A stretch of 64,000 nucleotides of DNA from Candidatus Chisholmbacteria bacterium (GTDB lineage: Bacteria; Patescibacteriota; Microgenomatia; UBA1400; Chisholmbacteraceae), in assembly GCA_963704905.1 (NCBI GenBank), contig CAVPHZ010000001.1, forward strand, positions 579,438-643,437, read 5' to 3'. Positions 24,528 through 60,183 of this stretch are shown in pieces (positions within the stretch are counted from its first letter, which is position 1; each line of letters begins with the position of its first letter). Under the pieces are notes generated by a model. It was not told the origin of the DNA. It did no database searches and worked only from the letters and a program-made list of their open reading frames with translations. The position numbers and the translations under genes were made by a program.

Positions 24528-24585
24528 GTACTACCAGAGGAAAAATGGCTGAAAGGCCACATTAGAAATATAGCTTGCCTGCCCA

Positions 24586-48500: not shown

Positions 48501-50064
48501 TGGAGATACAGGTTCGAATGTTGAGACGTTATCGACTGGGGACTGGACATCATGTGGTGTGGATTTAACCCTCACTGATCGAGTTGATGTCAACCGGTCG
48601 TTTGTGTGGGGAACGACTCGAGATTCTGGGGGTGGACAAGCGTATGATCGAGCCGAGGCTTCGTTCCAATTGACAAATGAAAACACAGCTAGGGTGGATT
48701 GTGTAGACCCAGCAAATACCGACGCCTTTACTGGATTTGCTGTGATGTTCCCGGATTGGCGAGATGTGAGTGATCAAAAGATCTATCAGTTTGAATCTAC
48801 TGACTTTACATCTGGTTCTCTGACTACCTATTTTGAAGCAACGCTGGCATCAAGTGAATCAACCGCCTCAGCTCAAGCTAGGCTCTACAACATCACAGAT
48901 AATGAAGCAGTATCAGGGAGTACAGTAACCGTTTCCGGAACTACATGGGATAGGCAGCGGAGCAGTGCATTGACGATTGGTGCGTCGGCTGGAAATTTGC
49001 AAAGTGGAGATGAGTACATCGTGCAGCTTTCTTACGAATCGGGAGTTGAAACACAGGCAGCAAACGCGAAGCTAGTTTTAGAGCAAGATGGTGGAGGATC
49101 TGGTTTAACAACAACAGAGATTATTCATCAGTACAACAACACTCTGGCTACAGACAATGACAGTACGTATACGGCACAGAACTTTGATAATGAGTTTAAT
49201 CTTCAAGATTTTGATGGGGGAGATTTCGCTGGCTATTTTGAAACGACGATACAGACGAATAACCCGAGCAATGCTTACTATGCTCGGCTTGATATACCTG
49301 CTGGTGAAAGGACAGCAAGTGATGTTGAGTACACAAGATCTCGAAGTGCTGATGTTTGGTCAAGCTTACCAGGCAGTGCAACTGATATTGATATTGAGCT
49401 GCGGAATGCATCAACCTCTACCACCTCATCTTCAAATTCCTGGATGGTGATTGAAGTTACGAATCTTGGAAATCTGAGTGGAGGAAACCAAGACGTTATC
49501 GATAGTGTTCCAACGGGTCTAGCTAATAATTTCTCAACTGTGGTTGATACAACCAATTACGATGTCCATCTTTTGTATGTTGATGATGAGGCAACTGACC
49601 AGGTTTCCTATCGGCGCTGGAATAATTCAGTTACCCCGAGTTGGGATGCATCTGCAGTTAATCTTGATGCTTCAAATGATGATGCGTACGTAACGCTCTC
49701 ATTGGATTATGATGCTGGAGACCTGTATGCAATATGGATAGATACTGCAACGGGTTATATTTACTATCGTCAATGTGACGTGCCAATTGGACCAGCGGAT
49801 TGTTCAGCTGCAGGGAATTGGCAGAGTGAGGTAGCTTGGCAAACTGATGGGACGAGTACAAATATTTCAAGTAATTATTCAGGAGGCACGCACATATTCG
49901 CAACTTGGACCCGAGGAGCTAGTGATCCCTACACAGTAATGTGGGATATTATCTTAATTCCTGAGCAACTGTGGTTGTTTATAGGAGTAGCACCAATACT
50001 ACCACTGTTACTTAAGCGTCTTAGGGAAAAGAAAGCATATGCAAAAGTTAGAAACCAGACATAA
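24586..50064 (+). CDS. Giant (8492 aa) multi-domain surface protein. Domain order: N-terminal duplicated transposase-like HTH module; TM helices; processive family-2 glycosyltransferase domain; TM helices; ~7000-aa repetitive extracellular region; C-terminal sorting-signal-like TM tail.
   Basis: A single uninterrupted ORF of 25.5 kb. The GT2 region has 'ISVHLPMYNEK' (the first Asp), 'FDADFV' (D-x-D), 'ITEDFEMTLRL' (ED) and 'QRMRWAEGHSF' (Q-x-x-R-W). Hydrophobic helices flank the GT2 domain. The downstream Thr/Gly/Asn/Ser-rich repeats are typical of beta-helical fibres. The ORF ends '...WDIILIPEQLWLFIGVAPILPLLLKRLREKKAYAKVRNQT*'. Confidence 0.8.
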   Translation: MKSQKRRVKRLNNAFYYFIQRIDAVSLKRQLKSFKHIRDRFRDRPSPSNDREVQVGDHSQTPPDVLDQSTREKEIVNIAWRDPGVSVDELADKIRLRQWGHDITNDLVYQTLLAYGIAEKEHRLRWAQDHQYDFTEAWNALIPTAKRKTTTGKLSAQERLAIIRRVEQGEPVDQVCASVGVSRTLFYKWKKRYDTVKTEAWKRTFGFTRGTLDERELLAVLESQPASKPVVYGGQATAEQVRAVLETVVKNPDWGVGKIYKHLPKEDGKPIIGRHGVQKILERENLRSIEERRYWVSTQPKKGSTEDTQIIKLAWQDPGLSVEDLVDKIRLRQWGHDITNDLVYQTLLAYGIAEKEHRLRWAQDHQYDFTEAWNALIPTAKRKTTTGKLSAQERLAIIRRVEQGEPVDQVCASVGVSRTLFYKWKKRYDTVKTEAWKRTFGFTRGTLDERELLAVLESQPASKPVVYGGQATAEQVRAVLETVVKNPDWGVGKIYKHLPKEDGKPIIGRHGVQKILERENLNTFTKRQSWISSQPAFAPEPTGVRPELSWQDRIKLATDEFIPSRAPAPPPGQSALLYYFSFYSPYLFIALFVFTGLFGFGYLLGHAQDSSQAIGWFFASVALTMGAFFFLYSMKYYLTLAIVLSYTREGSVPFESERDTAREGTLIERLFGLSLRKESGEEHLGELPRKAGGLEPNVDEIHLERYPFISVHLPMYNEKHVAERLLRAATSFDYPAYEVIVADDSTDETKDIVMRFADHWNKNKKPGQPVVKISHRETRAGYKGAALQLALQRTDQRAEFVTIFDADFVPYPDSLTLFVKYFKHSAGTLDYQSEKFQVRQAHKSGAKSEWSVDVDEKTRVAAVQGYQWHVLNKSENWVTRGVRTEYSGSYVIERSGEELYGGMKQISGSVYMIRRDLLERFGWGTSITEDFEMTLRLYEAGYRVVYTPYIQAPSECVSTLKRLFRQRMRWAEGHSFNVKKRFWPLMTSDNLTKNEKFEFLYLTPYYLQAAFFLIGTISWLLSETLFAARLPFWTTVWGWSLVFTNMLSLPLMNGIGLFLEEAEERDFLGLFSFVLLSYLLVPFQAYASVKGFVQDEEGPWFRTPKSGKVTDILRRGKFARFLRYILQQQFASAKMQGRLREGALAAYPVPAFAMARSSAKLPIGGFSIKRRQARWIGKLVISFMLILTTTLVSFAPYVQSLSSVGLPPTGSGVILSPDMSSKDKPVPTSERRSSISLPNFVNEAFAAEEEGDVLVVEYTGGVRVTSPKHDFSRAETPQFVVERNEPFLQNLWKGVRRLFGRADDTGMQIRLRDSKGQAVEDFETSGMGEDVFDVRLPTELQYKPGKYQLVVEYDGKTIEQDFTWGVLAVNTNKSIYLPGDSAQLSMAVLDDEGRMVCNADVTLKVSFPSGEVAYRSTDDGTIQVNRGCLKREMILEPDYETEIEVGGVGVYQMELTAKTLDGERKVYDSFEVKESVLFDVERDSATRIYPKEIYPVTINITANQNFTGQVIETVPEGFRIAENEEYRLQQLENGRTEIIWDVDWRTGDQVTIAYPYNAPNRSPDFYLVGPLRIENNGEEVFSEARRWQIAADWTTEIPHTSLFTETDDTGANTTVDVYEDVDNTTISHATLNGDGFGDTEQVLLIANVNFDGNDANAVYGFRIADTAGNPVANTTVRREVRTADDRQEIQRIMTRTNKVSGEGFVLQKAFHTAGQTTPNILKASIVVLGLGNLTENVDYVYDDDTSTTALSTTAATFATITTPASDNRWQGDVLVMDHWKADGNTTSQSLQHGLRRDTDSLVNITRQEGEDSNDLYGGGSIYVYNNADTSAHTYDVRMYTSAGTSFSHNYSSIIAFRASLFEDFEWNNTDTESIPGDTNFNEMAGITPFSPQNSGEFVVMGFAVGESNAVANSDDVRIRLQVDGTNVPSGYDDSTNGTMLEDPDDLYGINLASLETFDTSSKDIDMDAATDVTTVGFSYRTLVAFSMGLAPTISISGSCDQYDRSTDCVDDGSNEIRVAVDGVLQGQSDTVVDGAWSITGVPTPAGGAVITVFINGETTASERATTVTEYSGVGNITAVPLYQRHLVIGSDQDQTTTNTDLQQYDYSASGNDVDVIYDVNNATNDLTVDNLGSYSDETLLILSGDTYIPDSGSSGNVATHDFETSGTVTADGNAFTVSGSWDNNSVFTANTSTVSMTATSGTETIDSTGASTAAFNTLNLGSGSGTATWNIGSALDVDGALTIDWGTLDMNGANNINLANNLTINANGNYTSGTGTVTFDGSGTNTWTDNRATKANMGTVSINGTSKTINFGSSVTAASVNVAGSQTLGLGSSGYTLTLTGTGTPFTVTGTLDEGTDSTVVYTGNGVTTIVAETYDNLSVHPGGTVTHTLAAGTFNINGDFSVGDGTNTGTIQANTNDPAITISGSMTINANATYEAASLVANDLTIGNDFTNNGTFTHNSGSIVFNDASNTSTLLYSGTTTFGTFEVTTDSKAIEFDNVDQTTIVDAFTINGQACGTKITINSDTGAAQFEIQTSGATVSVTYADIQYSNALTAMSATNSANSGNNTGWTITEDTCASMSLSGNVYNFGTSTALTECDASGATFELRLRIQTTTYSASCSNTDGSYTFTGISIPTVGDGMVLWIDDAEVPETDGALVVRFDGVQPSPNNTFYDDAVTVTSDDTNPVDILHMNVYDNGQDSDIPYTATDASPDTLVVNSGYEFLVQLKSGVASGSTVFQPNGTVTTNATGGDFHIDDNATAFLDTDTNTIGRDILIDGGARLNIDGDTNVNGGDITMSGTSPRIDTTAGTPTVTMTSTGSIGGGTTPTTTFHNLATTGTGTTTVTNSTTTNGDVTVGTGTTFTVNADLTVNGGDFTNTTTGVINTTSGTPTVTMSGTGNLGGGSGSVTLFDLTTSGSGTTTIASTVTTNNDVSVGAGTTLRINNNLNIDGGDLTTTSTGIIDYTSGIPTVDLDGTGTLGGGSGSITLYTLDLGDTTTDTTTLSSTIAADNQIIINTNQTFTVGSNNVTVGSSSVTDSGNISNSGTYTQTGGTTTIQSSDTSTAPTIGGSGTSTFNNLDIGPTTADNLTYTFNTAGDITVSNLLTIQDAGGADTHTLDGQNDTISLPASGTPFVVDSNAVFSANTSTVSYTGTSATSVASTTYYTLNIGTTANSSTLTYTLLGDTGVDNVLTIGASSGTGVHTLDASSFSLTMGGAGTPLVINSQGLFDESTSTVNFTGDGATTVNARAYYNLEIGNDGSLGAGRTYTSAAGTITIASNLAVGAPTGSFTHIFDVNTNDTTITVSDSVTITSLGNYSASSNVSNPLTIANDFTNNGTFTHNSGLVVFDTAANISTLTYSGNTTFNDLSMTTVGKPMSFDAAQQTIIAGTFTITGASCGNLTPLSSETSGNQWDIDIQGSAAVTFVYITDSNAITSASASNSTDGGNNTGWNISKGSCASSVTGEVAIYREDTGLEDVSDTTQFDHQWDTIVTEGASFDLNDTGGSPDYASVDLADAGHYLVLYNAGWQRVDTTDTRTETQAWIDLAGTDIQYGRSTCYIRSSGNANECWQSGAAIINATAGQDIKIEGQRTDSSTFTQERTAQEAGLQLIKLDDTWGYARIHENTGGQSFNTNGGYDAVTWDDNTDELDAGFFAHSSSTNSEEITLKLDGHYLVSANVMLQSDSTTYRRNRDMRLTLGDGTTQTEIEGTRVTSYMRGSNGAQDHVASFVGIINASAGDVLELEIGCIRNEDTTNSCAGVTNIGNQSGITIAKLPDSADYVRIHDDAVQDIDDATPAPILWEDSGEEEEDAGSFSHSGGSSQVNIDYSSSADYLFFSNQYADRTSDTNGTRAYPHWNWRTSGSSTLQYGSFGKYNRGDNGSTGTWTSGNSGGAILLGLTSSDYVETLNTEEANGATDTAGEFQVNRSAIQGVNLNTLLQAFIDITGTCDQYDRSTDCVDDGSNEIRVAFDGVLQTSLDSAVDGAWQISGLTAPSTGAVMTVFINGETTASERATAVTTYSGSGSVGSVTLYQRHLTIGSDQDQEVTNTNLQQYDYSASGNDVDVIYDVADATNDLTVDNLGNYTDEVLLVLAGDTYRPDSASSGNVATHDLETSGTVTADGNTFTVSGSWDNNDVFTANTSTVTMTATSGTESIDSSGASTATFNTLNLGSGSGTATWNMGSALDVDGALTIDWGTLDMNGANNITLANNLTINSNGSYTKGTSTITFDGSGTNTWTDNNSTKVDMGAVSINGSSKIINLGSSVNATSVDVAASQTLGLASSGYSLTLLGSGTAGSRPFIVSGNLDEGTNSLVTYAGTAATDIQAETYHDLTLAPSAAGGPSFRLGTASSQTIDVDGDLVVGDGTNAVTILANTFDPTINLAEDLTLNANSTWTKSPTATLTFNSTTTPVTWTDNNSTKQDIGIVSIDGPKEVDLGTSVTATTINVTGGDTLDLQSLGYVLQITGSGTGGSRPLIVAGTLSEGIDSLVEFVGTSATDIEAEIYHDLEADQSGTTFTAFGNIEASGVLTIQNGTYDGSSFTTTLSGTGTPFVINDTFTPSTSTISYTGNGATTITSTTYYTLSVGTSNSANITYSAGGALVVNNQLNLQSAAATFNNTLSVGANDLTVGLSGVTNSGGISVPLRSSLTQSASATTSIRSSSGGSASIGGDGSIQFFNLTFDPSVASAPTFTLGNGASQTIDVDRNLTVGNGTNPVIIQWETNDPTLTVGGNLLLSNNSTWTKSTTATLTFDGATTPVTWTDNNGTKQDLGDVSIDGPKEVDIGGSVTATSVDVTGGDTLDLQSLGYTLSLTGTGTPFTVGGTLSEGTDSTVRYIGNGSTNITAETYDKLSIHPGGTVTHTIQTGTLTVNGDLSIGDGSNTGTIEANTNDPTITVAGSMTINANGIYQASSNTLNPLTIGDDFTNNGTFTHNSGRIVFNDSGNTSTLLYAGNTTFGAFDVTSASKAMAFDSADQTIITGALTINGAACGTPITLSSATGGNQWDVDAQGSVSVDYVTLTDSNAITAVSATNSTSGGNNSNWTIDGGTCADNWEGIAYTNDDEATPLSAVSVCAVVNSGTPVCETTNGSGVFTIVSQDASATDQLTFFVDGGVDVGNTVTISDGGDITTGDNLRLYEDHVTLRHEQGTDISIVDLDAYDNDQNSTDMLYDAEDLATDTLVIESGYELFIYNSYTFDADGTVTTQGAGGNLQVDNSATAILDTTSNTIASDLIIDSGATCTINGDTSINGGDITMSGTSPVLNTTAGTPTVTMSSTGSIDGGTTPSITFYDLATTGTGTTTIANATTVNNDVSVGTGTTLRVNANLNIDGGDLTTTTTGSIDYTSGTPTVDIDGTGTLGGGSGSITFYTLDLGDGTTDTTTLSSNISVDNSITVNASQTLNISSNDVTVGSSSVTDSGSINVSGIYSQSGGTTTVQSSDTSTAPVIGGSGTSTFYNLDIGPSTADNLTYTFDTASDINVSSILTIQDAGGADTHTLDVQNDTVTLFGSGTPFVVDSNAIFNENTSTVSYTGASATNVTAETYYNLNIGTTANSSNVTYTLAGDTTVSNILTIGASSGTGTHTLDGSNRTVMLSGTGTPLVINSQGDYEESTSTVNYTGDGATNVTVNGYYHLEIGNNGSLGADRTYTSAGGTVTVGGNLTVGAPSGVRTHTLEVNTNDTTVAITGSLAITTLGIYSASSNTANPLTIGNDFTNNGTFTHNSGRIIFNDVSQTSTLLYSGTTIFSTFEVTTAGKFMEFDNVDQTTITAAVTIDGQGCGSLVEINSDTGAAQFEIQTSGATVSIDRARIQWSNALTAMTANDSKDGGNNTGWTINEGACADMEVTGFVYDFGTSTALTECDGSGATFELRLRVLTTTYSASCSAADGSYTFSGVVIPSTGDGLVVWIDDVEAPETDGALVTRFDGTKPSSDNVFYDDAVTVTSDDTNPADIIDMDVYDNGDDSDIPYSATDAATDTLVVNSGYELLVQLKSGVASGSTVFDPNGTVTTNATGGDFHIDDNATAFLDTATNTIGRDIEIDGGARLNINGSTDVNGGDITLSGSSPRVDTTAGTPTVTMSSTGTIGGGTTPTIAFYNLATSGSGTTTISNTATVNNDVSVGAGTTLRVNANLNVDGGDLTTTTTGSIDHTSGTPTIDIDGTGILGGGSGSITFYNLDLGDGTSDTTTLASTITVDNQITINSDQTFTVGSNSVNVGSGSVTDSGTISVASSGVFNQSGGTTTVTSSDGSTAPTLGGAGTTTFYNFTLGSTSDARTYTFDATGDITVSNNITLTDPGIGDSHNLDVQGNDVDVGSGSVTDSGSITVPSRSRYIQGTSGTTTIHSSDNSTAPILGGAGDTTFYNLIIGNTSDALTITVDFSGSIEVLNGLIVTDPGVGDIHTLDALGNDLTVGSSGATDSGDIIVALNAVFTQSSSGTTTVSSSDTSTAPLLGGGGTTTFYTLNVGSTTADNLTYTFSTAGNITVSNVLTIQDAGGADTHTLSASDDTVTLTGTGTPFVVDSNASFTESTSTVNYIGDGSTNVAAEGYYNLEIGNSASLGTGRTYTSQTGTITASNNLLVGAPSGSFTHLFEVNTNDTTITVSADVEITALGSFSASSNTANPLTIGDDLTNNGTFTHNSGRIVFNDSGNTSTLLYAGNTTFGAFDVTSASKAMAFDSADQTIITGTLTINGTACGTPITLSSATGGNQWDVDAQGSVSVDYVTLTDSNAITAVSATNSTSGGNNSNWTISGGTCADNWEGIAYTNDDEATPLSAVSVCAVVNSGTPVCENTNGSGVFTIVSQDASATDQLTFFVDGGATFGNTTTISDGGDITTGDNLRLYEDHVTLRHEQGTDISIVDLDAYDNDQNSTDMLYDAEDLATDTLVIESGYELFIYNSYTFDADGTVTTQGAGGNLQVDNSATAILDTTSNTIASDLIIDSGATCTLNGDTSINGGDITMSGTSPVLNTTAGTPTVTMSSTGSIDGGTTPSITFYDLATTGTGTTTIANATTVNNDVSVGTGTTLRVNANLNIDGGDLTTTTTGSIDYTSGTPTVDIDGTGTLGGGSGSITFYTLDLGDGTTDTTTLSSDMAADNQVTVNTGQTFSNASSNVTVGSSSVTDSGSITVSGVYSQAGGITRVQSSDTSTVPVIGGSGTTTFYNLAVGTASDALTYTFDLASDITATNDVQITDGGVSDTHTLDTTGSNFDIDVGGDWINDEGTSGFTANASTVTFTGVTSTQQVSGTSSFYNFTATFGSGAIEFEQSQTQTILTGGVFTIAGTSCIDYIDLWSQSPSTAWNINLVGAATASVSYVRVTDSNASGNPMTANNSHNGGGNTNWTIVVGECTGTSSSPTATGFSFQRKTFFDNVNARYWLFSHNGSEIDIRYSTDDGGTWNTVAALSYDTNDFSVWWDQIGSTEYVWLAVANNNDIVVRQGSLGLSSITWDVDESVALDGTGASDTYSYAYLSMDSADYLWVGARHYDGTNYHYLTAATHEGGGSQTADSDPSTWTWTGVPHQLTDDQANTNVYGNVVALNNQDMYATFVTNTSLQGCWWDDSDGKWEDNSGSLCSVVGDPTIEQQINIIDQEYSTTGTDQPGNNSLGLVAFDSADYTGDTVYFEAIIRCDSCTGGNTEVDVALVDDTSTTTVTTVSSTSSTYTRVRSGSISPTADEYTVEVTRDATAGTAYVKAARLLIVQTSATDIDDTVSMVELGNNDAMFGARVQRGATTISAGSASANATLGQSVDISRSFAICSPGESGDTAPNSITFSCTLSSSQLTFTRYGSTGTAALLIEWQVVEYDNISVQTGTETFNTASTQENFTSGEGMTAVRLDKTFVVLTARSDGTSLNDNNDRYVSPNLTSTTNLQLSRNATSTNVTVDFFIVEFLDDTYVEQWSGLTIPDAGSTDDSANLSGRSGSGVDTSRSFALGYQRGSSTDDQGMDANTMTLELIDADTVRATRTGSTSGYGNMEVEGWVVELPQEGSGDTGSNVETLSTGDWTSCGVDLTLTDRVDVNRSFVWGTTRDSGGGQAYDRAEASFQLTNENTARVDCVDPANTDAFTGFAVMFPDWRDVSDQKIYQFESTDFTSGSLTTYFEATLASSESTASAQARLYNITDNEAVSGSTVTVSGTTWDRQRSSALTIGASAGNLQSGDEYIVQLSYESGVETQAANAKLVLEQDGGGSGLTTTEIIHQYNNTLATDNDSTYTAQNFDNEFNLQDFDGGDFAGYFETTIQTNNPSNAYYARLDIPAGERTASDVEYTRSRSADVWSSLPGSATDIDIELRNASTSTTSSSNSWMVIEVTNLGNLSGGNQDVIDSVPTGLANNFSTVVDTTNYDVHLLYVDDEATDQVSYRRWNNSVTPSWDASAVNLDASNDDAYVTLSLDYDAGDLYAIWIDTATGYIYYRQCDVPIGPADCSAAGNWQSEVAWQTDGTSTNISSNYSGGTHIFATWTRGASDPYTVMWDIILIPEQLWLFIGVAPILPLLLKRLREKKAYAKVRNQT
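24859..25439 (+). repeat. Copy A of a 581-bp 100 % identical core inside a 705-bp in-frame tandem duplication (the unit encodes 235 aa of an HTH-HTH DNA-binding module).
   Basis: Line-by-line comparison of 24859-25439 with 25564-26144 shows identity at every checked position. The offset of 705 equals 3 x 235. Antisense ORFs 25237..25683 and 25942..26304 share an identical 64-aa tail, confirming the identity. Confidence 0.85.
25564..26144 (+). repeat. Copy B of the 581-bp identical core of the 705-bp tandem duplication.
   Basis: See copy A. The flanks of the two units are diverged: WRDPGVSVDELADKIRL vs WQDPGLSVEDLVDKIRL at the 5' side, and ERENLRSIEERRYWVSTQ vs ERENLNTFTKRQSWISSQ at the 3' side. 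Confidence 0.85.
26683..27513 (+). other. Family-2 glycosyltransferase (GT2) catalytic domain of the giant protein, processive synthase type (cellulose/chitin/hyaluronan-synthase-like motif set).
   Basis: The motifs 'VHLPMYNEKHVAERLL...YEVIVADDSTDETKDIV', 'TIFDADFVPYPDS', 'GTSITEDFEMTLRLYEAGYRVVY' and 'QRMRWAEGHSF' are read directly from the translation. Confidence 0.7.
39290..40720 (+). repeat. Copy 1 of a ~1.43-kb near-identical intragenic direct repeat. Copy 2 lies 5097 bp downstream.
   Basis: The translations are nearly identical ('NPLTIGDDFTNNGTFTHNSGRIVFNDSGNTSTLLYAGNTTFGAFDVTSASKAMAFD ... TLDLGDGTTDTTTLSS'). Three pairs of antisense ORFs (39741..39953 / 44838..45050, 39934..40203 / 44869..45300, 40146..40427 / 45243..45524) are identical. 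The first ~700 bp show a few percent divergence and the last ~735 bp only 2-3 differences. Confidence 0.8.
44387..45817 (+). repeat. Copy 2 of the ~1.43-kb near-identical intragenic direct repeat.
   Basis: See copy 1. The offset of 5097 equals 3 x 1699, so the repeat is in frame. Confidence 0.8.
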
Positions 50065-50112
50065 TCAGTAAGAATGCATAGATTTATTGACCATATATAA
50101 AATGAGGAGATC

Positions 50113-50688
50113 ATGAGTCAGAAGACAGTTTTTAAACGAATTTTGGCAATTACTTCCATCGTACTCGCATTGCTGCCAATGCTTGTGACTTTTGCGTCTC
50201 TGTTGACGAACTTATTTGACAGAATGGGGTGGTATGTTTGGCTTCAGCAAGTCATTGTACCGTTTGAGTCGAGGCTTGTGGCAATTCTTGTAAGACTGGT
50301 TGGAATTTCCGGCATGGTAACTCCAAATACTGAGCATTTTTCTATGGTTCTGCAAAAACCTGATAATGTGTTGTTACCAGTTCAACTTTCGTGGAATTGT
50401 CTGGGTTGGCAGAGTTTGTTGTTACTCGGTCTAACGCTCGTTACAGGATTACAGGGACCATATTCACGGTTTTCTAAACTCCAAGTGATAGTATTTGGAG
50501 TGCTGGGAACATTTCTCAGTAACCTGGTTAGAATGGCGCTTATTACGTCGCTTGCGTACTATTGGAATACGTTTGCAGCAATGATTATTCATGATTATTT
50601 TGCGATGTTTGTTGCACTCGGGTGGATGATATTTTTCTGGTGGTTTTCGTATGCCTATGTGCTTGAAGATAGTCCCGTTGATCAGTAG
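50113..50688 (+). CDS. Small polytopic membrane protein resembling the exosortase/archaeosortase family (putative sorting transpeptidase).
   Basis: The 191-aa product has ~5-6 hydrophobic helices. A Cys sits in 'LSWNCLGWQSLLLL' (codon 50398-50400) and an Asn-x-x-Arg in 'LSNLVRMALI' (50521-50532), matching the recalled Cys / N-x-x-R active-site pattern of the exosortase family. A strong SD (GGAGAT) lies 4 nt before the ATG. The gene sits directly after a giant protein that ends in a tripartite sorting-signal-like tail. Confidence 0.45.
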   Translation: MSQKTVFKRILAITSIVLALLPMLVTFASLLTNLFDRMGWYVWLQQVIVPFESRLVAILVRLVGISGMVTPNTEHFSMVLQKPDNVLLPVQLSWNCLGWQSLLLLGLTLVTGLQGPYSRFSKLQVIVFGVLGTFLSNLVRMALITSLAYYWNTFAAMIIHDYFAMFVALGWMIFFWWFSYAYVLEDSPVDQ

Positions 50689-50873: not shown

Positions 50874-51236
50874 GTGTATACTTATATAACTATGAGAAGC
50901 CTGCCCAAGACCTTCTTTGTTTTTCTTGCTGTTATAAGTCTCTTATCTTTGTTGGCGTATTCACCTCAACACACTCTTGCTCAAGAGGAAGACTTCACTG
51001 AGGAGGAAGAGATTGTTGAGGAGGAGGAAGTGCTTGAGGAAGAAGAGGTAGTTGAGGAAGAAGTAGTTGAGGAAGTTGTTGAAGAAGAGAATACAGAAGG
51101 GGAAGTACTTGGAGGTGCAACGGAACTTGGGGATACTGGCGCAGAGGACTATATATACGTAGTGGCAGGTTTGGTCGGCGTTTTGGTTGTGGCTGCGGGT
51201 TTTAAAATTGCACGCAGTAATGTCGAAGAGTACTGA
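50874..51236 (+). CDS. Small secreted acidic protein. It has a signal peptide, a Glu/Val-rich (EEVVEEE) repeat region and a C-terminal hydrophobic anchor preceded by 'LGDTG'. It is a possible non-canonical sortase substrate.
   Basis: The N-terminus 'MRSLPKTFFVFLAVISLLSLLAYSPQHTLAQ' looks like a signal peptide. The C-terminus 'ELGDTGAEDYIYVVAGLVGVLVVAAGFKIARSNVEEY' has the motif / hydrophobic / charged-tail layout of a sorting signal. The gene overlaps the start of the sortase gene. Confidence 0.4.
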   Translation: MYTYITMRSLPKTFFVFLAVISLLSLLAYSPQHTLAQEEDFTEEEEIVEEEEVLEEEEVVEEEVVEEVVEEENTEGEVLGGATELGDTGAEDYIYVVAGLVGVLVVAAGFKIARSNVEEY

Positions 51237-51801
51237 ATTCATTCTCCAGTTAAGTTTCATTCTTTTTGTTGCGCTCATTCCGTCATTGGTTATCATCCGT
51301 GTCTTTGAACCTGCCAAAGCTTTGGCTGAAAATTTTAAAGAAAACGATCCGCAAGTGTTTTTGAATCCACTTGTAGCTTTTGTTAATGAGGGAGTTATTG
51401 AGAGAAAGCATGTGAAGGAATCCCCAGTGCTCTTATCAATTCCTGCACATGACTTACAATTGCCTGTTGCTGAAGGAAAGATTAGTGATAAGGTATGGGA
51501 GCTTTATGATGATAAAGTCGCTTGGCTTTCGACGAGTGATGAACCTGGAGAAGGGAATGTTATCCTTTATGCCCATAATCAGAAGCATTTATTTGCACCA
51601 CTTCATGATGTGGAGGTTGGTGAAGAGATTGTAGTTGAGCATGGAGGATGGGAATATCTTTACGAGATTGTTGAGAAGCGTAAGGTTGAACCTTCTGATG
51701 TAGATTCTGTCCTGACTGATCAAGAGCAACTCACTCTATACACTTGCGATGGAACATTTGATCAGCGGCGATTAGTTGTGATTGCACGACCCAAGGCATG
51801 A
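51220..51801 (+). CDS. Sortase-family transpeptidase.
   Basis: Has an N-terminal TM anchor (FILQLSFILFVALIPSLVIIRV). The catalytic His is in 'NVILYAHN' (~51574), the Cys in the TLxTC motif 'LTLYTCDG' (51745-51747) and the Arg in 'RRLVVIARP'. The ORF track allows an earlier start at 51187; 51220 (MSKSTEF) minimises overlap with the upstream gene. Confidence 0.7.
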   Translation: MSKSTEFILQLSFILFVALIPSLVIIRVFEPAKALAENFKENDPQVFLNPLVAFVNEGVIERKHVKESPVLLSIPAHDLQLPVAEGKISDKVWELYDDKVAWLSTSDEPGEGNVILYAHNQKHLFAPLHDVEVGEEIVVEHGGWEYLYEIVEKRKVEPSDVDSVLTDQEQLTLYTCDGTFDQRRLVVIARPKA

Positions 51802-51848: not shown

Positions 51849-53927
51849 GTGAAACACAGCAGACTTTTTCCTCTTTTTCTGTCAATCTTTTCTATTTGGC
51901 TATTATGGCCAGTAATTCATGCTCAAGGACCTGCGTGGATGGGGTCTGCTGATGGATTCATGCTTGCGAAAGCGAGATTTCTTCAAAACGGTTTTGGATT
52001 AGGAAGTTGGAATCGGTTTTGGTTTCTCGGAATTCCGGGACAGCATATTGGATCTCCATTGTTACCATACTTGCTGGCTATCGGTTTTCGTATCATTGTA
52101 AATCAGCCCATTCGCATGTTTCAGTTGTGGAGACTGATTGTTGTCGTAGGTGTTATTGGATCAGTGAGTGGTATTTATAAACTAACAAGAACGTTCGTTA
52201 GAGAGCCAATGAAGGCTAAAGGTATTGCACAAGCATTGTTTGTTTCGCTTCTTACACTCTCTTTACCTTCCAGCCTTCTTTTTTTTCCACAAGTATTTGG
52301 AATTACCCGTGAATTTGGTTTTGCGAGTTGGTCATTGTTCAGCCCTCTCTATTTGGGAGATGGTCATCGATCGGTCGGATTTGCTGTGATTCTCACTATT
52401 CTGTTTGTTGCAGCACAACTCCTTGAGCGTTGGAATTTACGGACTGCAGTACTTATGAGCGGATTGGTTGGACTTTTGTTACTGATTGATTCTTTAAGCC
52501 TATTGCCTCTTCTGTTGTGGCTGATTGTTGTAATGATGTTTGCCATTTTGCGACACCAGAGGGAAACGAGTGAAATTGCAGAGTATTGCATAAGATTTAT
52601 ATTTATAATCTTCTTCGGCTGTCTCCTGGTTTCATTCTGGTTTACTCCTGGTTATGTACTTAACTTGGTAGGATCACCGTCGTTAGGGGGAAAGTCTTTC
52701 TTATCTGTATCAATAGGTATTGTGCAGAGATACGTTGTCATTCTTCCTATTATTTTTGGCATTCTCATCGGTAAGAAGATGCTCAAGAAATTATCAAATC
52801 TAACACTTCTGGGCTTATTCGGATTCATTATATTTGGGGTAGTAACTCTTGTTTCATACTTTGCTGATCCGGATTTTTGGCAAGATTACACTCGGTTTGG
52901 CCGATCATTGGATTTGAGCATAGCCTTTCTAATAGGAGGCGTTGTTTTCCAGCAAAAAAATATTCGTCGATCGTTTCGACTACTATTCTACTGGCTTCTA
53001 TTGATTGTGCTTATTTATCAGACTATTTCTTTACGTGGGAGCGGGCTGATGAGTGAGGTAGGATCAATTTTTGAGAGTAGTGAGTATCAGGTGGGATCTG
53101 AACTGCAGCAGCTACTTTTGTCGGAATGCAAAACCAGTGAAACCTGTGAAGAGCGAGCATACCTCTCTGGCAGTTCGGCTTTTTGGTTTAATGCTTGGTT
53201 TCCATATGCACAAGTGCGTGGTGGGAGTGAAATGGGTTCATTGAATGATTGGTGGCCACATGGTTCATTTCAAATCCGTGAAGGTCGTACAAGCGACTTG
53301 ACGCGTTTATGGCTTGAGGCGATGGGGGTTGAATTCGTCGTTGTTCACGGTCAGGATTCAGATGAAATATATCATGATTTTCGCCATCCTTCGAAATTCG
53401 ATGAGATGGATGGTTGGGAGGCAACAAGTAAAGGTGAAGGAAATGTCATCTATCAGAATAATAATTCATCCTTTGCTCGAGTTGCTTCTCAGAATCTACT
53501 CTCGATTTCTTCTCCACAACAGGGTGATGATGTTGAGCAACTCCGTCAATATGTTGAGCAGCTTAATCGTCAAGCTAACTTTGAATGGATCACCCAGCGA
53601 GAGTTTGAGATTTTCGCGACGACAACTACAGGAGAAGGTATAAGTGTACCTGTATCCTATTCAGCTTTCTGGAGAATTATCGAAAGTACCGTTCCAGCGA
53701 AGTTAGTCCGAGATCCGTTGGGGTTGATGTTTATACAGCTCGACGGTTCTGGTCCAATTTCAGTTCGATTACGCTATTCACCATTTCCAGATATTTTAAG
53801 CGGTATGGCTTTTACCATTGTTGCTTTTTTCATTCTGCTTCGTAAGCCGAATTTCATTGAAGATACTGGAGACAAGTTCAGGAGCTTTGTAGGTACAGAT
53901 TCGGATATTGATCGCACTGCGCTATAA
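51849..53927 (+). CDS. Large polytopic membrane protein (692 aa) with ~12 TM helices followed by a C-terminal soluble domain. It is a putative GT-C-type glycosyltransferase or polysaccharide-handling protein, family unassigned.
   Basis: Hydropathy was read from the translation. The C-terminal 'VVVHGQDSDEIYHDF...GEGNVIYQNN' is shared with the 734-aa paralogue ('MANGQDSDISRYWL...NGDIIYRVP'). It uses a GTG start with no clear SD, so the start is uncertain. Confidence 0.45.
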   Translation: MKHSRLFPLFLSIFSIWLLWPVIHAQGPAWMGSADGFMLAKARFLQNGFGLGSWNRFWFLGIPGQHIGSPLLPYLLAIGFRIIVNQPIRMFQLWRLIVVVGVIGSVSGIYKLTRTFVREPMKAKGIAQALFVSLLTLSLPSSLLFFPQVFGITREFGFASWSLFSPLYLGDGHRSVGFAVILTILFVAAQLLERWNLRTAVLMSGLVGLLLLIDSLSLLPLLLWLIVVMMFAILRHQRETSEIAEYCIRFIFIIFFGCLLVSFWFTPGYVLNLVGSPSLGGKSFLSVSIGIVQRYVVILPIIFGILIGKKMLKKLSNLTLLGLFGFIIFGVVTLVSYFADPDFWQDYTRFGRSLDLSIAFLIGGVVFQQKNIRRSFRLLFYWLLLIVLIYQTISLRGSGLMSEVGSIFESSEYQVGSELQQLLLSECKTSETCEERAYLSGSSAFWFNAWFPYAQVRGGSEMGSLNDWWPHGSFQIREGRTSDLTRLWLEAMGVEFVVVHGQDSDEIYHDFRHPSKFDEMDGWEATSKGEGNVIYQNNNSSFARVASQNLLSISSPQQGDDVEQLRQYVEQLNRQANFEWITQREFEIFATTTTGEGISVPVSYSAFWRIIESTVPAKLVRDPLGLMFIQLDGSGPISVRLRYSPFPDILSGMAFTIVAFFILLRKPNFIEDTGDKFRSFVGTDSDIDRTAL

Positions 53928-54234: not shown

Positions 54235-54747
54235 TTAACTTAGACTACTCGAGGTGTGTGAAGTGATTTGTGATTGTGGTATTGGTGAGAGAGGCTGGCT
54301 TGGTAGATCTTTTGTTCTGGCTCTTTGAAGGAGGATAAAGCTAGCTATAAGAAGTATTGCTATGATTGCAGCCAGGCCTGCAGTGGCTATGTCGCTTTTA
54401 AAACGGCTTTTAGCTGGCTTAGTGGGAGTGATTGTCAAGGTCTGTTTCCTAATAGGTTGTGTTATATGAGATTGATAGATTGGCTTTGCGGTAGAAATAG
54501 TTTTTGGTTTTTGTTCTAACTTTGGTTTTGGTTCAAAAACTTGTGCCATTGGTTGTTTGAGTATATTTTCTAGCTGTTTTCGACCATATCTGCGGTGTCC
54601 ACCCACTGTTCTTCGAGCTGTTAGCTTTCCCCTTTTTTCCCATCGTCTAAGAGTGTCTTTTGAGACACCCAAATATTCTGCTGCTTCTGCGATTGAAAGC
54701 CACTGTCTGGTGCCAAAAGGGATTATTTTCACAGGTTGTTTCTTCAT
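54235..54747 (-). CDS. Membrane-tethered DNA-binding protein with an N-terminal excisionase/MerR-type helix-turn-helix, a low-complexity linker and a single C-terminal TM helix.
   Basis: 'WLSIAEAAEYLGVSKDTLRRWEKRGKL' is the classic excisionase-family HTH signature. The TM helix is 'IATAGLAAIIAILLIASFILL'. The linker is Pro/Lys/Thr-rich. Confidence 0.55.
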   Translation of the reverse strand: MKKQPVKIIPFGTRQWLSIAEAAEYLGVSKDTLRRWEKRGKLTARRTVGGHRRYGRKQLENILKQPMAQVFEPKPKLEQKPKTISTAKPIYQSHITQPIRKQTLTITPTKPAKSRFKSDIATAGLAAIIAILLIASFILLQRARTKDLPSQPLSPIPQSQITSHTSSSLS

Positions 54748-56958: not shown

Positions 56959-59163
56959 ATGCCTCGAAATTCATTATTGAGCAAACCCACTGTAAAGAGA
57001 TTTTCTGTGTTGTTCAATAGATTAGGTCGATTGCTCGTTGGGTTTATAGCAGCAGCTGTCATTGGCTATCTCAACTGGATGGTTATCCATGGCTGGTTTG
57101 GCGGTGAAGGTCCAGCAAATATTGGTTCGATTGAGGTGTCGTATGTTTCCATGGCGAGATTTTTGGTGGACTTTGGCTACAAAACATGGGCACCGTTCTG
57201 GTACTTTGGTTTTCCATTTCATCTTTTTTATACACCTTTGTTACCATTTCTTGAAGCAATACTTCACAACGCTCTTGGTTGGCATCTTTGGGAAGCGTAT
57301 CGGTTTATCACTGGATTTGCTTATATTTTGGCTCCGATTTCTGTGTTTATTTTAGGGTGGGTGCTCTCTGAAAGGTTTATTGGCGGCTTTGTCAGCGGAA
57401 TTCTATACTCAGTGGTCCCAACGCTTTATTACTTCATCTTGCCTGGAACGAGGGATTCTGTTTATGGAGAAGTAGCTGCAGATCGGTTTTCAGCTACATT
57501 TTGGGATCCACGCCGATTTACAATTTTGATCCGATGGGGTGAAGGTCCACACACATTATCTCTGGTGTTTTTACCTCTGGTGGGTGCTCTCTTCATGCTT
57601 TCTCTAAAGAGGCGGAAGTTTTGGTTACTTGTTCTGGCATCTCTGTTTTTTGTACTCACAGCTCTTTCCAATGCTTTAGGAATGCTGGGGGCAGTGATTT
57701 TGGCTTTATCAATAGCATTTGTCCATTTTGCTCGAGAGTCTAAAGATCACATTCGCACAGCTACTTGGACGGTTTTGCTGTTGGTGATGGGACTAGGCTT
57801 GGCATCATTTTGGTATAACTTGTCATTTATAATGAATTTCTTTGCTGAGGGAGGTGGAGCAGCCTCGATTTACCTATCTCTATTTCCTTGGGGTTGGTTG
57901 GCTTTTGCACTTGCAGTCGTGATTCTTTATTTTGTAACCGGTAAACTTCTCAAAGATTGGGGTTTTGCTTCATCTTTGATCTGGTTCTTAGCTCTCTTTT
58001 TTGTGGTTTATGTTTTCTATTCCTCTGCACCACCAGAGCTTTCGAATCAGCGGATTGAGCTACTTCCACAAGCCTTGCGTTATATCACTCAGGTTGATCT
58101 GGCTTTCTCAGTGCTGGTTGGAGTAACAATTGCATGGGCACTCAAGTTCATTGGTCGGCGGTTTTTACTTGTGGAACGTATTCTTTCTCTAATTCTTGCC
58201 GGAGTAAGTTTATATGCATTTATCTATATCCAACCGTTTCTTACCACATCGTACAATGTCTCAAATACTGTCGTTGACTTAAGTCAAACGAGAGAGGAAA
58301 CAATTGCTACTCTTCTTGAGAAGAACGTGGATCCAATCAAAGGTGAGCGAGTATTTCTGCCTGGAAATTATGGTTTTTACTTGAATTGGTTTACAAATGT
58401 CTGGCAACACAGAGGCGGTTTGTTTCAGGCTGCAACCCATCCTTGGCCAGACCATGTGCATTATCAGATGGCAAATGGGCAAGATAGTGACATTTCCAGA
58501 TATTGGCTCAAGGCAATTAATGCCAAATATATTGTCATTCCTACTCCGGAATCTCAAGAGCTTTATAAAGAGATAAAAAATCAAGAGCGGTTTGAGGATT
58601 TTGAAAAAGTCTATGAGAAGAATGGAGATATCATCTATCGAGTGCCGCTTCTGCGCCCATCCATTGCAAAACCGGTTGATGAGAATGCGATGATTTCTCT
58701 GGTAACACCAGAGAAAGGAGATGATGAGGAAGCGTTACAAGAATACGTTCGGTGGGTTGAGCGATCTTCAGAAACAGAGGCACGCTTTGAAATGGTTGAT
58801 CATGACCATTATGTTCTTTCAGGTTCGCTTGAGGAGGGGGAAGTATTACTGGTTCAAATGACAGCTGACTCAGGATGGAGTGCCATGCGTCGTAATGCTC
58901 CTCAGGGTACACGAGTTAAAGTGAAGACAGGGAAAGATCCTTTAGGATTTTTGGTTCTTTATCCTGATCCAGGGGATTTTGAGATTGAACTTACTCATTC
59001 TACAACTTGGCAACTCTGGCTTGGGTATCTTACAACCTTTATGACGATAGGATTCATCTTTTGGTACGGTTGGGCTTCTCGAAGATTTGCCAAAGGTGTT
59101 GAGAAACTAAAAGCTAGTAAAGCCAAGAGGGATGCAGACAAACGAGAAACAGGTAAAAAATGA
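56959..59163 (+). CDS. Large polytopic membrane protein (734 aa) with a C-terminal soluble domain. It is a putative GT-C-type glycosyltransferase-like protein and a paralogue of 51849..53927.
   Basis: Has ~12 predicted TM helices, then a soluble domain containing the 'GQDSD' block shared with the 692-aa protein. The C-terminus has an extra amphipathic/TM segment (LWLGYLTTFMTIGFIFWYGW) and a basic tail. Confidence 0.45.
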   Translation: MPRNSLLSKPTVKRFSVLFNRLGRLLVGFIAAAVIGYLNWMVIHGWFGGEGPANIGSIEVSYVSMARFLVDFGYKTWAPFWYFGFPFHLFYTPLLPFLEAILHNALGWHLWEAYRFITGFAYILAPISVFILGWVLSERFIGGFVSGILYSVVPTLYYFILPGTRDSVYGEVAADRFSATFWDPRRFTILIRWGEGPHTLSLVFLPLVGALFMLSLKRRKFWLLVLASLFFVLTALSNALGMLGAVILALSIAFVHFARESKDHIRTATWTVLLLVMGLGLASFWYNLSFIMNFFAEGGGAASIYLSLFPWGWLAFALAVVILYFVTGKLLKDWGFASSLIWFLALFFVVYVFYSSAPPELSNQRIELLPQALRYITQVDLAFSVLVGVTIAWALKFIGRRFLLVERILSLILAGVSLYAFIYIQPFLTTSYNVSNTVVDLSQTREETIATLLEKNVDPIKGERVFLPGNYGFYLNWFTNVWQHRGGLFQAATHPWPDHVHYQMANGQDSDISRYWLKAINAKYIVIPTPESQELYKEIKNQERFEDFEKVYEKNGDIIYRVPLLRPSIAKPVDENAMISLVTPEKGDDEEALQEYVRWVERSSETEARFEMVDHDHYVLSGSLEEGEVLLVQMTADSGWSAMRRNAPQGTRVKVKTGKDPLGFLVLYPDPGDFEIELTHSTTWQLWLGYLTTFMTIGFIFWYGWASRRFAKGVEKLKASKAKRDADKRETGKK

Positions 59164-60183
59164 ACCGCTCTTTACCTCAGGTATCTGCGATTATTGTCAC
59201 CTACAATAATAAGAGGTGGCTTATGAAATGTATTCCCTCTCTTCTTAAACAGACGTATGGAAATCTTGAGGTCATTGTTGTTGACAATGCTTCCGTTGAT
59301 GGTGCGAGTGCTTTGGTTAAAGAGCACTTTCCTGAGGTGAAAGTAGTCATTGTTGATGAGAATCGCGGTTTTGGTTCCGGTTGTAATGCAGGTGCTCAAG
59401 ATGCTCGAGGGAGGTATCTTCTCTTTTGTAATGAAGATATGGTTTTTGATAAGAACTACGTCAAGACTCTGGTAAGGGAGCTTGAGATTGATCCTCTCAT
59501 TGGAGTTGCGACAAGGAACAACGCATGCTTACACCGAATCCAAAACAGGGATAGAGAATCAGAGGACTATTCAGTCACGGGGACTACTGTTTAATTACAC
59601 AGGAGTTTTGGTTGGAAGTGGACAGAAAGTGGAAAATCAGGAAAATGATGGCGATATTTTTGCTGCAACTGTACCATTTATTATAAGAAAGATTACTTAT
59701 GATCGGGTTAAGGGATTTGATGAAGACTTCTTTCTATATTTTGAAGAAGTTGATCTTTGTTGGAGGGTTTGGTTAGCTGGAAAGCGTGTGACTTTTGTTC
59801 CCCAGGCAAAAGCTATGCATGTCGGTGGAGTATCTACCGGTAAGCTTTCTTCCTCGAGTGTAGTTGAATTTACACTGCGTAATAGACTTCAATCGTATCT
59901 TATTAATCTTGGAGCACTTCGTCTACCTATCGCTTTACTTATGCAACTGCTAATGGGAGCGCTGGCTGTGGTTATCCTTCTACTTCGAACTAAAATCACT
60001 CTTTCATTTGCAGTGGCGCGAGCGTTTGCATGGAACTTATGGCACTTACCTCGTAGTCTTAGCAAGCGAACTCAGGTACAAAAGAGCCGATTGGTTGAAG
60101 ACCGTGATTTTCTATTGCGAGTGACGGGTCCGATTCCGCTAAACAAGCTTCTTTTTCTTGTCGGGTTTCGTACGAGTCTGTGA
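59160..60183 (+). pseudogene. Family-2 glycosyltransferase (GT-A fold, rhamnosyltransferase-like) split into two overlapping ORFs (59160..59594 and 59482..60183) by a frameshift. It is either a pseudogene or a sequencing error.
   Basis: The N-terminal ORF has 'VSAIIVTYNNKRWLMKCIPSLLKQTY...EVIVVDNASVDGASALV...NRGFGSGCNAGAQDARGRYLLFCNEDMVF'. The C-terminal ORF continues with 'IQSRGLLFNYTG...GFDEDFFLYFEEVDLCWRVWLAGKRVTFVPQAKAMHVGG' in frame +1. The junction is between ~59505 and 59575. Its start overlaps the stop of the upstream gene (ATGA). Confidence 0.55.

Follow-up and report, generated by a model that had tools for sequence, protein, structure and literature searches.

A minimal exosortase-family protein encoded beside a giant glycan synthase with a sorting-signal-like tail in a Candidatus Chisholmbacteria bacterium

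Introduction

What is the role of a small membrane protein whose gene lies immediately downstream of the gene for a giant protein, when the C-terminus of the giant is laid out like the sorting signals of surface proteins? The question is raised by 64,000 nucleotides of DNA from a Candidatus Chisholmbacteria bacterium (Patescibacteriota; GenBank assembly GCA_963704905.1, contig CAVPHZ010000001.1, positions 579,438 to 643,437), and this whole stretch is referred to here as the window. The small protein (the mini-exosortase) resembles the exosortases and archaeosortases, and the giant (the cargo) resembles a glycan synthase of glycosyltransferase family 2 (GT2) that ends in a tail beginning with a V-P-E-like motif (the VPEx tail). 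The reading considered probable is that a minimal exosortase-family cysteine transpeptidase acts on the VPEx tail of the GT2 cargo encoded upstream of it, and this reading is built on family membership, motif invariance, tail conservation, cross-phylum adjacency and gene fusions. The two genes and the spacer between them are as follows.

24586 to 50064, forward strand: cargo gene, 8492 amino acids (aa), an uninterrupted open reading frame (ORF) whose parts were delimited by domain and hydrophobicity analysis
50065 to 50112, forward strand: intergenic spacer of 48 bp, with a Shine-Dalgarno-like GAGGAG right ahead of the ATG
50113 to 50688, forward strand: mini-exosortase gene, membrane protein of 191 aa, matched by TIGR04178

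A small enzyme of the exosortase family

The 191-aa protein scores 33.9 bits against TIGR04178, the NCBIfam signature of the exosortase/archaeosortase family (cutoff 23; E = 2.8e-8), and the same model matches all 23 of the relatives that were aligned. Its scores against the named subfamilies are far lower than their cutoffs (24.6 versus 100 for ArtC, 16.6 versus 102.75 for XrtG, and 16.5 versus 225 for CrtC), and none of the 23 relatives approaches such a cutoff; ArtC is the best-scoring named subfamily, matched by 20 of the 23, and XrtG is weakly matched by 15. The models for Exosortase X and Exosortase Y (NF046081 and NF046083) do not match the window protein, and elsewhere their best scores stay below cutoff (38 bits versus 170 for the member from locus L042; matches at E = 1.1e-6 for three of the 23 members from the Candidate Phyla Radiation (CPR)). 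A Pfam scan of the 191-aa protein returned no match. These profile scores place the protein in the exosortase/archaeosortase family, as a member of an unnamed clade. Its homologs comprise 413 members in a database clustered at 90%, most of them from Microgenomates-group Patescibacteria (Woesebacteria, Chisholmbacteria, Curtissbacteria), and many are already annotated generically as 'exosortase/archaeosortase family protein'; clustering at 50% identity gives 381 clusters with E <= 0.001.

The EpsH family was defined by the motifs Cys-x-Gly, Asn-x-x-Arg and His-x-x-x-Gly (Haft et al. 2006, PMC1569441), which lie on three successive helices, one motif close to the outer end of each. The first two motifs and a variant of the third are present in the mini-exosortase, with invariance assessed over 120 members.

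50392 to 50415, forward strand: W-N-C-L-G-W-Q-S, the Cys-x-Gly motif with candidate nucleophile C96; W94 to S101 invariant in 120/120
50521 to 50532, forward strand: N-L-V-R, the Asn-x-x-Arg motif; N137 and R140 invariant in 120/120
50590 to 50604, forward strand: H-D-Y-F-A, the third motif, with the His kept and Ala in the place of Gly; H160, D161, Y162 and A164 invariant in 120/120

Over the 120 members, the mean number of Lys and Arg residues is 3.3 at the N-terminus and 2.7 in the loop at residues 114-124, and because the positive-inside rule puts both of these regions inside, C96, R140 and H160 would lie at the outer ends of three consecutive helices and are predicted to be at the outer face of the membrane. 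An AF2 model of the enzyme (predicted local distance difference test score (pLDDT) 80.3) contains five helices and a small beta region, and a Foldseek search of this model against PDB yielded only matches at chance level, DgkA and MgtE among them (best E = 0.77).

The preliminary description of this DNA, made from the letters of the sequence, had noted a 191-aa protein 48 bp downstream of the giant gene with SWNCLGW and NLVR motifs, had read these hesitantly as the Cys / Asn-x-x-Arg signature of exosortases and archaeosortases, and had suggested a search with TIGR04178 and a possible new subtype. Its sequence statements are all correct; the family reading agrees with the TIGR04178 score and with the 120/120 invariance of the motifs, the profile search was passed by the window protein as well as matched by its 23 relatives, and the suggestion of a new subtype accords with scores below every named subfamily cutoff and with the failure of NCBIfam sorting-domain models to match the tails.

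Variants of the enzyme gene were also observed. Mini-exosortase paralogs lie side by side in L002, L018 and L019, with a cargo upstream of the first copy in L002 and L018. One homolog (P0249) is fused to a C-terminal S-adenosylmethionine (SAM) methyltransferase, and methyltransferase genes recur near the system in L042, L043, L045 and L046. Six others (P0282, P0313, P0314, P0320, P0349, P0351) are fused to a domain of ~250 aa, in which no Pfam match was found for the two that were scanned (P0282 and P0313).

A conserved tripartite tail

The C-terminal end of the giant ORF reads ...MWDIILIPEQLWLFIGVAPILPLLLKRLREKKAYAKVRNQT before the stop codon, and its tail peptides include ...LWLFIGVAPILPLLLK and a stretch containing KAYAK. 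Three parts can be delimited.

49957 to 49968, forward strand: signature motif I-P-E-Q, read directly (family consensus [V/I]-P-E-[N/K/Y/R])
49969 to 50013, forward strand: tail transmembrane (TM) helix LWLFIGVAPILPLLL, with the conserved family prolines at +11 and +14
50014 to 50061, forward strand: basic cytoplasmic cluster KRLREKKAYAKVR (cluster 50014 to 50052), then the final NQT

Tails of this kind were sought among the 1149 ORFs of >=80 aa found in the window and 41 related loci. Under a strict definition (P-E, an uncharged hydrophobic run, and >=3 K/R), 28 of the 1149 ORFs match, every one of them on the strand of the exosortase gene; under a relaxed definition, matches occur in 39 of 474 same-strand ORFs versus 4 of 531 ORFs on the opposite strand (Fisher p = 1.4e-9). 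Alignment of 32 tails gives the consensus [V/I]-P-E-[N/K/Y/R]-L-W-L-[F/L]-L-G-L-x-P-[F/L]-L-P-x-[L/F]-I, then 5-7 K/R. Conservation extends to positions that the search definition does not cover, namely V/I at -1 (28/32), W at +4 (14/32), and the prolines at +11 (21/32) and +14 (19/32), and is also seen as N/K/Y/R at +2, L at +3, and 5-7 K/R from +18. The window tail, IPEQ-LWLFIGVAPILPLLL-KRLREKK, agrees with all conserved positions of the consensus. In none of the 32 tails is P-E followed by P (0/32) or F (0/32); the residues found there are N, K, Y, R, S and Q, the last of these in the window. When ten of the tails were compared with NCBIfam at E <= 10, no sorting-domain model matched; for one of the ten, three PEP-CTERM protein families were matched at their ends at chance level (E = 0.07-0.38).

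Two departures from the consensus layout were noted. In one subclass of cargos (P0142, P0143, P0146, P0180, P0182, P0186, P0203, and the L044 ORF at 10001-13294), ~40 residues follow the VPE-helix-basic segment and end in LD(E/D)LPV; in L044, the sole locus of this type that was examined, no exosortase is present up to the contig end. In L039, from a contig labelled Dormiibacterota, a divergent homolog of the enzyme is preceded by an ORF (2-685) with the C-terminal sequence ...LAESPLPAAGLALLAPLAAAALLGRRRRRQM, a tail that is tripartite without P-E and is possibly a further variant of the signal.

The cargo as a glycan synthase

The first ~1,200 residues of the cargo combine cytoplasmic helix-turn-helix (HTH) domains with a membrane-embedded GT2 glycan synthase of processive type, and the order along the whole chain is two HTH blocks, TM helices, the GT2 synthase, TM helices, a giant repetitive extracellular arm and the VPEx-type C-terminal tail.

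24586 to 26250, forward strand: N-terminal cytoplasmic region with two transposase-type HTH blocks; HTH_23 and HTH_28 each match in two stretches
26311 to 28167, forward strand: GT2 module: a first set of TM helices (aa 576-631), then the GT2 domain (aa 709-1041), then further TM helices as far as aa 1194
28168 to 49956, forward strand: extracellular arm of ~7,260 residues, rich in T, G, S, D and N

The GT2 domain (aa 709-1041) is matched by PF13632, PF13641 and PF00535, and the NCBIfam models closest to the module are PgaC/IcaA (E = 6.6e-25), CelA, NodC, and the XrtP- and XrtG-associated glycosyltransferases, all of these matches lying far below the equivalog cutoffs, none of which is reached. 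The sequence contains FDADF, SITEDF and FRQRMRW, which are the DxD, TED and QxxRW motifs of BcsA-type processive synthases. TM helices flanking the GT2 domain on both sides, together with synthase-type motifs, are the features by which processive family-2 enzymes are recognized, and on this architecture the cargo is a membrane-embedded, processive-type GT2 glycan synthase and not an ordinary secreted protein. The preliminary description had overlooked this nature of the cargo.

The HTH-TM-GT2-TM module is 39-58% identical in related tail-bearing proteins and is present in 25 of the 41 loci. Every unambiguously complete cargo ORF of the related loci has the GT2 module, and where the module seems to be missing, the cargo ORF starts in a masked run of N or a GT2 fragment lies a short way upstream in a different frame. 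A search with only the GT2 module returned >1,270 proteins, typically of 1,000-1,100 aa and annotated as 'glycosyltransferase' or 'cellulose synthase/PNAG synthase-like glycosyltransferase/transposase' (PNAG, poly-N-acetylglucosamine); among the 120 best of these homologs, the strict tail definition is satisfied by 51, and many of the others are partial sequences or acceptable by eye. By this comparison the partner conserved with the enzyme is a GT2 synthase whose extracellular domain is short and which ends in a VPEx tail, and the 8,492-aa window protein is an extreme elaboration of that GT2-plus-tail type, its giant size being peculiar to this genome.

The HTH region occupies about 560-570 N-terminal residues, and its paired blocks were made by a 705-bp tandem duplication (DNA repeat 24798 to 25097 and 25503 to 25802, 91% identical; aa 69-317 versus 304-552, 86% identity in the protein). 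HTH domains, which are of DNA-binding type, are also kept in the cargos of related loci. The arm of ~7,260 residues has no Pfam match. Its residues ~2000-7240 consist of long, diverged super-repeats that are 40-83% identical, and the giant gene contains no DNA-level tandem repeat with a period <= 500. A domain directly preceding the tail (aa ~8295-8490) is shared with the cargos of L005, L015, L007, L003, L031, L022, L011 and L012. A protein-database search with the last 299 aa of the giant gave one match only, and local BLAST against the cargo ORFs of the related loci was used because the C-terminal domain is too divergent for word-based search.

No terminator is predicted within the 48-bp spacer that separates the cargo gene from the mini-exosortase gene, so that co-transcription of the two is likely; counts of predicted terminators and promoters around the junction do not exceed those in shuffled controls, and no Rfam match was found anywhere in the 64-kb window. 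Directly upstream of the giant gene lies an AT-rich region of 1.9 kb (22700 to 24585; 29-36% GC versus a window mean of 45%) in which neither an ORF of >=70 aa nor an Rfam match was found.

Pairing of enzyme and tail across loci and phyla

Pairing was assessed in the 41 loci encoding relatives of the enzyme, 35 of which are informative in that upstream sequence is present. A tail-bearing ORF adjoins the enzyme gene directly upstream in 24 of the 35; in a further 8 loci, such an ORF is encoded elsewhere on the strand of the enzyme gene. The pairing is not strictly one-to-one, with two cargos in L003, L009 and L027 and enzyme paralogs in other loci, and such loci number two or three in some genomes. 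In the reverse direction, six cargos on four long contigs were taken as the starting point: an enzyme gene lies directly downstream of three and in the same locus as a fourth, and of the remaining two cargos, one is truncated by a contig end and one has no enzyme within 10 kb.

The association extends beyond Patescibacteria. GT2 relatives in which a response-regulator domain or the C-terminal domain of the RNA polymerase alpha subunit (alpha-CTD) replaces the HTH region (named examples: Anaerolineae, Dictyobacter) end in VPE[G/A]-helix-basic tails, and one homolog from a cultured organism, protein KSZ_32230 (P0218) of Dictyobacter formicarum, combines a GT2 module with a VPEA tail. In L042, a 209-aa enzyme homolog is encoded directly upstream of a Response_reg-GT2 gene (4820-8065) that ends in a VPEG tail. 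This homolog contains SWNCVGWQS, NLLR and HDYGG, scores 32.9 bits against TIGR04178, and aligns with the mini-exosortase at an hhalign probability of 100% and 41% identity. Exosortase-type sorting may range into Patescibacteria (CPR) and Chloroflexota-type organisms, groups that are generally held to have no outer membrane. Within the GT2-plus-tail family the N-terminal cytoplasmic domain is swapped, being a transposase-type HTH in Patescibacteria versus a receiver and/or alpha-CTD in Chloroflexota-type proteins (e.g., P0220, P0224-P0229, P0231-P0241), and L042 also has genes for a histidine kinase and a ParA/BcsQ-like ATPase nearby. Nine of the loci (L001, L005, L006, L009, L010, L013, L026, L039, L041) are titled 'uncultured Gammaproteobacteria', 'Bathyarchaeia archaeon', 'Dormiibacterota' or 'Omnitrophota'; such titles on Patescibacteria-type loci look unreliable and unfit for host-range inference.

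Enzyme and tail also occur in one chain. The proteins P0317 (946 aa; annotated by JGI as an exosortase family protein) and P0363 (1,227 aa) each consist of GT2, an extracellular domain, a PIEVPEN-helix-basic linker and an exosortase domain, an arrangement that agrees with an enzyme topology in which the N-terminus is inside. These fusions tie the components together functionally.

The preliminary description had read the IPEQ-helix-basic tail as a tripartite sorting signal, had proposed a search for similar tails, and had pictured a dedicated enzyme beside a single giant substrate. The first of these is borne out by the 32-tail consensus and the strand enrichment, and the search yielded many proteins with a near-identical tail, typically beside an enzyme homolog. 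The third holds in part: the adjacency recurs, but some loci have two cargos or enzyme paralogs, and the giant size is found only here. The tail consensus and the enzyme clade could serve as annotation models for proteins currently labelled 'glycosyltransferase', 'hypothetical' or, generically, exosortase/archaeosortase.

Proposed mechanism and alternatives

For cleavage, transfer and the acceptor, the proposal follows the analogy of ArtA and the sortases. The cargo would be anchored N-terminally by its own GT2 membrane module, with the arm of ~7,260 residues projecting outside the cell. The tail helix, once inserted, would pin the distal end of the arm in the membrane, with the basic cluster on the inner side and the PE motif exposed on the outer one. 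At this outer face Cys96, aided by Arg140 and His160, would attack at or near the PE motif and release the helix and basic cluster, leaving an acyl-enzyme that would be resolved by passing the new C-terminus to an envelope nucleophile (lipid or glycan) or to water. The large polytopic membrane proteins encoded nearby may be part of the same system. A mechanism of this kind suggests how some giant CPR surface proteins are mounted on the cell, and it brings the acceptor and the polysaccharide link of bacterial exosortases within reach of tests in a minimal two-gene system with a 191-residue enzyme.

A more speculative extension, considered unlikely, is a self-contained protein-glycan conjugation in which the new C-terminus of the arm would be joined to a glycan chain, or to a lipid-linked intermediate, produced by the polypeptide's own GT2 domain. 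Such a reaction would build covalently tethered surface fibres or a matrix for ultra-small, host-attached bacteria, and in the fusion proteins it would amount to autoprocessing that frees the enzyme from its substrate. If true, it would be the first identification of an exosortase acceptor and of a physical link to exopolysaccharide (EPS) synthesis.

Several findings weigh against the transpeptidase proposal. Three exosortase loci (L019, L035, L039) have no tail ORF, and for the cargos in L044 and L046 no enzyme gene lies within reach. The enzyme is small, with about 4-5 hydrophobic helices versus >=8 in EpsH, and the Pfam model of that family (PF09721, Exosortase_EpsH) misses the window protein and matches 3 of 23 relatives at E <= 0.01. 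The third motif is His-x-x-x-Ala, not His-x-x-x-Gly, throughout the CPR clade (Ala164 is invariant), with the Gly kept in the Chloroflexota-type member (HDYGG) and in the fusion proteins (HNYGG and HDYAG). Comparison of the enzyme profile with solved structures gave nothing at E <= 10. The cargo has no signal peptide, and because its GT2 helices keep it anchored regardless of whether the tail is removed, the classical rationale for sorting is not obviously applicable. The fusion proteins are as compatible with a stable complex as with an enzyme-substrate pair, and cleavage in this clade is an inference.

Many of these points lend weight to the main rival, in which the 191-aa protein would be a non-catalytic, or no longer proteolytic, subunit of the GT2 complex, with the VPEx helix docked on it permanently and uncleaved, and the whole would be a structural or regulatory module for glycan export. 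An arrangement of this kind would suit a cargo that is already polytopic and has no need of sorting, natural fusions that hold tail and enzyme in one chain, an enzyme strongly reduced relative to EpsH, and the loss of Gly from the third motif. Exosortases, moreover, have long been tied to EPS loci, and their role in EPS synthesis is unproven (PMC1569441). The invariance of the Cys, the Asn-x-x-Arg and the His in 120/120 members is nevertheless hard to explain without catalysis, and the tail retains the complete tripartite layout of cleaved signals, in which the PE at the edge of the membrane is invariant. The internal position of the tag in the fusions does not preclude processing either, as sorting tags inside a protein are processed in other systems, namely in ArtA and myxosortase substrates (PMC11980579). 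The permanent complex is accordingly considered unlikely, and proteolytic action of the mini-exosortase on the tail is preferred.

Far less credence is given to the idea that the 25.5-kb ORF is an artefact of assembly or annotation that joins a GT2 gene to an unrelated gene for a repetitive surface protein. The repetitive arm and the 705-bp tandem duplication are risk factors for misassembly, and the giant protein was absent from the matches when its C-terminal 299 aa were used to search the database. Against this stand the absence of stop codons across 8,492 codons, the recurrence of the HTH-GT2-arm-tail order in many shorter proteins from independent assemblies, and the 3' junction itself (partial gene, 48 bp, 191-aa gene), which is reproduced independently in the Logan read-level assembly ERR12037370. 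The preliminary description had itself raised the possibility that the tail acts only as a stop-transfer C-terminal anchor; in this explanation the neighbouring small membrane protein would be functionally unrelated. A helix followed by a basic cluster is the generic layout of an anchor, and the adjacent enzyme is absent for a few cargos. This explanation is strongly disfavoured, and highly improbable, given that tails following unrelated domains agree in PE, in V/I at -1, in W at +4 and in both prolines, that adjacency holds in 24/35 loci and across phyla, that tail and enzyme are fused in some genes, and that the enzyme passes the exosortase signature. A classical sortase encoded 0.5 kb downstream in the same gene row (51187 to 51801; PF04203, E = 3.7e-21) is scarcely credible as the processing enzyme of the giant protein and was rejected as not conserved with the system, being next to the exosortase clearly only in L001 and weakly in L008 among the 41 loci, finding no LPXTG-like motif in the giant's tail, and having a candidate substrate of its own (LGDTG, TM helix, basic end) directly upstream.

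Comparison with known sorting systems

The pairing of a transpeptidase-like mini-exosortase with a tailed synthase can be set against four known systems. With the PEP-CTERM/exosortase system (EpsH, XrtA) it shares a homologous enzyme (TIGR04178) with Cys-x-Gly, Asn-x-x-Arg and His motifs at outer helix ends (predicted here), a tripartite signal that opens with V/I-P-E and continues with a TM helix and a basic cluster, linkage to polysaccharide synthesis genes, and a large intergenic region ahead of the cargo gene, a feature of PEP-CTERM genes noted in 2006. Exosortases are associated with EPS loci, and PEP-CTERM was defined as confined to diderms (PMC1569441). Unlike PEP-CTERM signals (TIGR02595, near-invariant Pro-Glu-Pro), the third residue of the motif is Pro in 0/32 tails and no model match was obtained, and unlike EpsH, with its >=8 TM helices, the enzyme is 191 aa long with ~5 helices. 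The cargo also differs from PEP-CTERM proteins in having no signal peptide, in being polytopic and in being itself the glycan synthase. In place of diderm hosts, the hosts here are Patescibacteria and Chloroflexota-type organisms, in which an outer membrane is absent according to general knowledge. One enzyme with many dispersed cargos is the PEP-CTERM pattern, whereas here enzyme and cargo genes are adjacent at roughly 1:1 or 1:2. That the presumed substrate would be the glycan synthase itself bears on the 2006 prediction of exosortases, which was made from the co-occurrence of PEP-CTERM tails and exopolysaccharide genes.

The closest analogue is the XrtG system of Firmicutes, in which one cluster encodes a Firmicu-CTERM protein, XrtG and two glycosyltransferases (PMC12854382). 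The enzymes are of the same size class (the XrtG profile has 187 positions, and residues 46-181 of the window protein align to its positions 44-179), the hosts are monoderm, both clusters compactly join a cargo, a small exosortase and GT2, and the GT2 module weakly matches the XrtG-associated TIGR03111 (23.8 bits versus a cutoff of 363.95). Unlike XrtG, the mini-exosortase scores below the TIGR03110 cutoff (16.6 versus 102.75), no sorting-domain model, presumably including Firmicu-CTERM, matches the tails at E <= 10, and the glycosyltransferase and the sorting-signal protein are one polypeptide.

Among the archaeal systems, ArtC/PEF-CTERM has in common with the present one the P-E core of the PEF and VPEx motifs, and ArtA/PGF-CTERM offers an enzyme of the same family that has been shown experimentally to remove the tail with essential Cys and Arg; its activity needs Cys173, Arg214 and Arg253 (PMC9263693). 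The present system differs from ArtC (TIGR03762) in its score (24.6 versus a cutoff of 100) and in having N/K/Y/R/Q, not F, after P-E, from archaeosortases in its bacterial hosts, and from ArtA in that the third critical residue, Arg253, has no obvious counterpart in the mini-exosortase and in that the cargo is a synthase, unlike the secreted S-layer and other surface proteins that are ArtA substrates. With sortase/LPXTG the likeness is one of outline (a tripartite signal, a Cys with Arg and His, and cleavage and transfer, as proposed here), and the mini-exosortase is not homologous to sortases.

In the literature covered, which leaves out many subscription papers, no description was found of exosortases in Patescibacteria, CPR, Microgenomates or Woesebacteria, nor of a GT2 protein with a sorting tail. 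The exosortase family is known; the unnamed clade and the GT2-synthase cargo carrying a VPEx tail appear to be undescribed.

Neighbouring genes

Three large membrane proteins are encoded downstream of the mini-exosortase.

51849 to 53927, forward strand: accessory polytopic membrane protein of 692 aa, a paralog of the 734-aa protein; homologs in 19/41 loci and in L042-L046
55649 to 56884, forward strand: accessory polytopic membrane protein of 411 aa; homologs in 16/41 loci and in L042, L043, L045 and L046
56959 to 59163, forward strand: accessory polytopic membrane protein of 734 aa; ~12 TM helices and an extracytoplasmic domain, with a TM helix at the C-terminus

Homologs of the 734-aa protein are present in 18/41 loci and in L042-L046, and the 691-aa neighbour in L042 is 32% identical to it over 681 aa (E = 6e-98). 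The 411-aa protein is related to the N-terminal part of the 692/734-aa family, and its type was not detected in L044. No Pfam or NCBIfam match was obtained for the 692-, 734- and 411-aa proteins of the window, a 12-sequence accessory-protein profile found nothing among PDB sequences, and an AF2 model of the 734-aa protein from a 3-sequence alignment was unusable (pLDDT 39). PF10131 (PTPS_related) matches 2 of 12 relatives of the accessory proteins, which as a guess may be GT-C-like glycosyltransferases.

Between the mini-exosortase and the first accessory gene lies a separate sorting pair (50874 to 51801), consisting of an acidic E/V-repeat protein and then the sortase (51187 to 51801). In the repeat protein, a signal peptide is accompanied by an 'LGDTG' + TM + KIARS tail, which the LPXTG model matches below cutoff (E = 0.23). 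The pair is regarded as a separate system because its two members recur together only in the closest locus, L001.

At the start of the window, another huge gene, rich in G, T, A and D, lies in the region 23 to 21459, encodes >=4,675 aa and runs off the window start; it is followed by ORFs in shifting frames (14022 to 15986, 16107 to 19826, 19756 to 20217, and 20395 to 21459), one of which has a Gly_rich_2 domain. The region is either a broken gene or a row of genes. These genes have neither similarity to the giant cargo nor a VPEx tail. Towards the other end, of two overlapping ORFs (59160 to 59594 and 59482 to 60183), the first matches the N-terminal half of GT2 models and the second the C-terminal half, and the region 59160 to 60183 resembles a single glycosyltransferase gene that a frameshift or sequencing error has divided. 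On the reverse strand, 54235 to 54747 encodes an HTH protein of the MerR/excisionase type that has a TM helix at its C-terminus; it is a candidate regulator and recurs near the system in six related loci, and MerR-type genes lie directly upstream of the cargo in L043 and L044.

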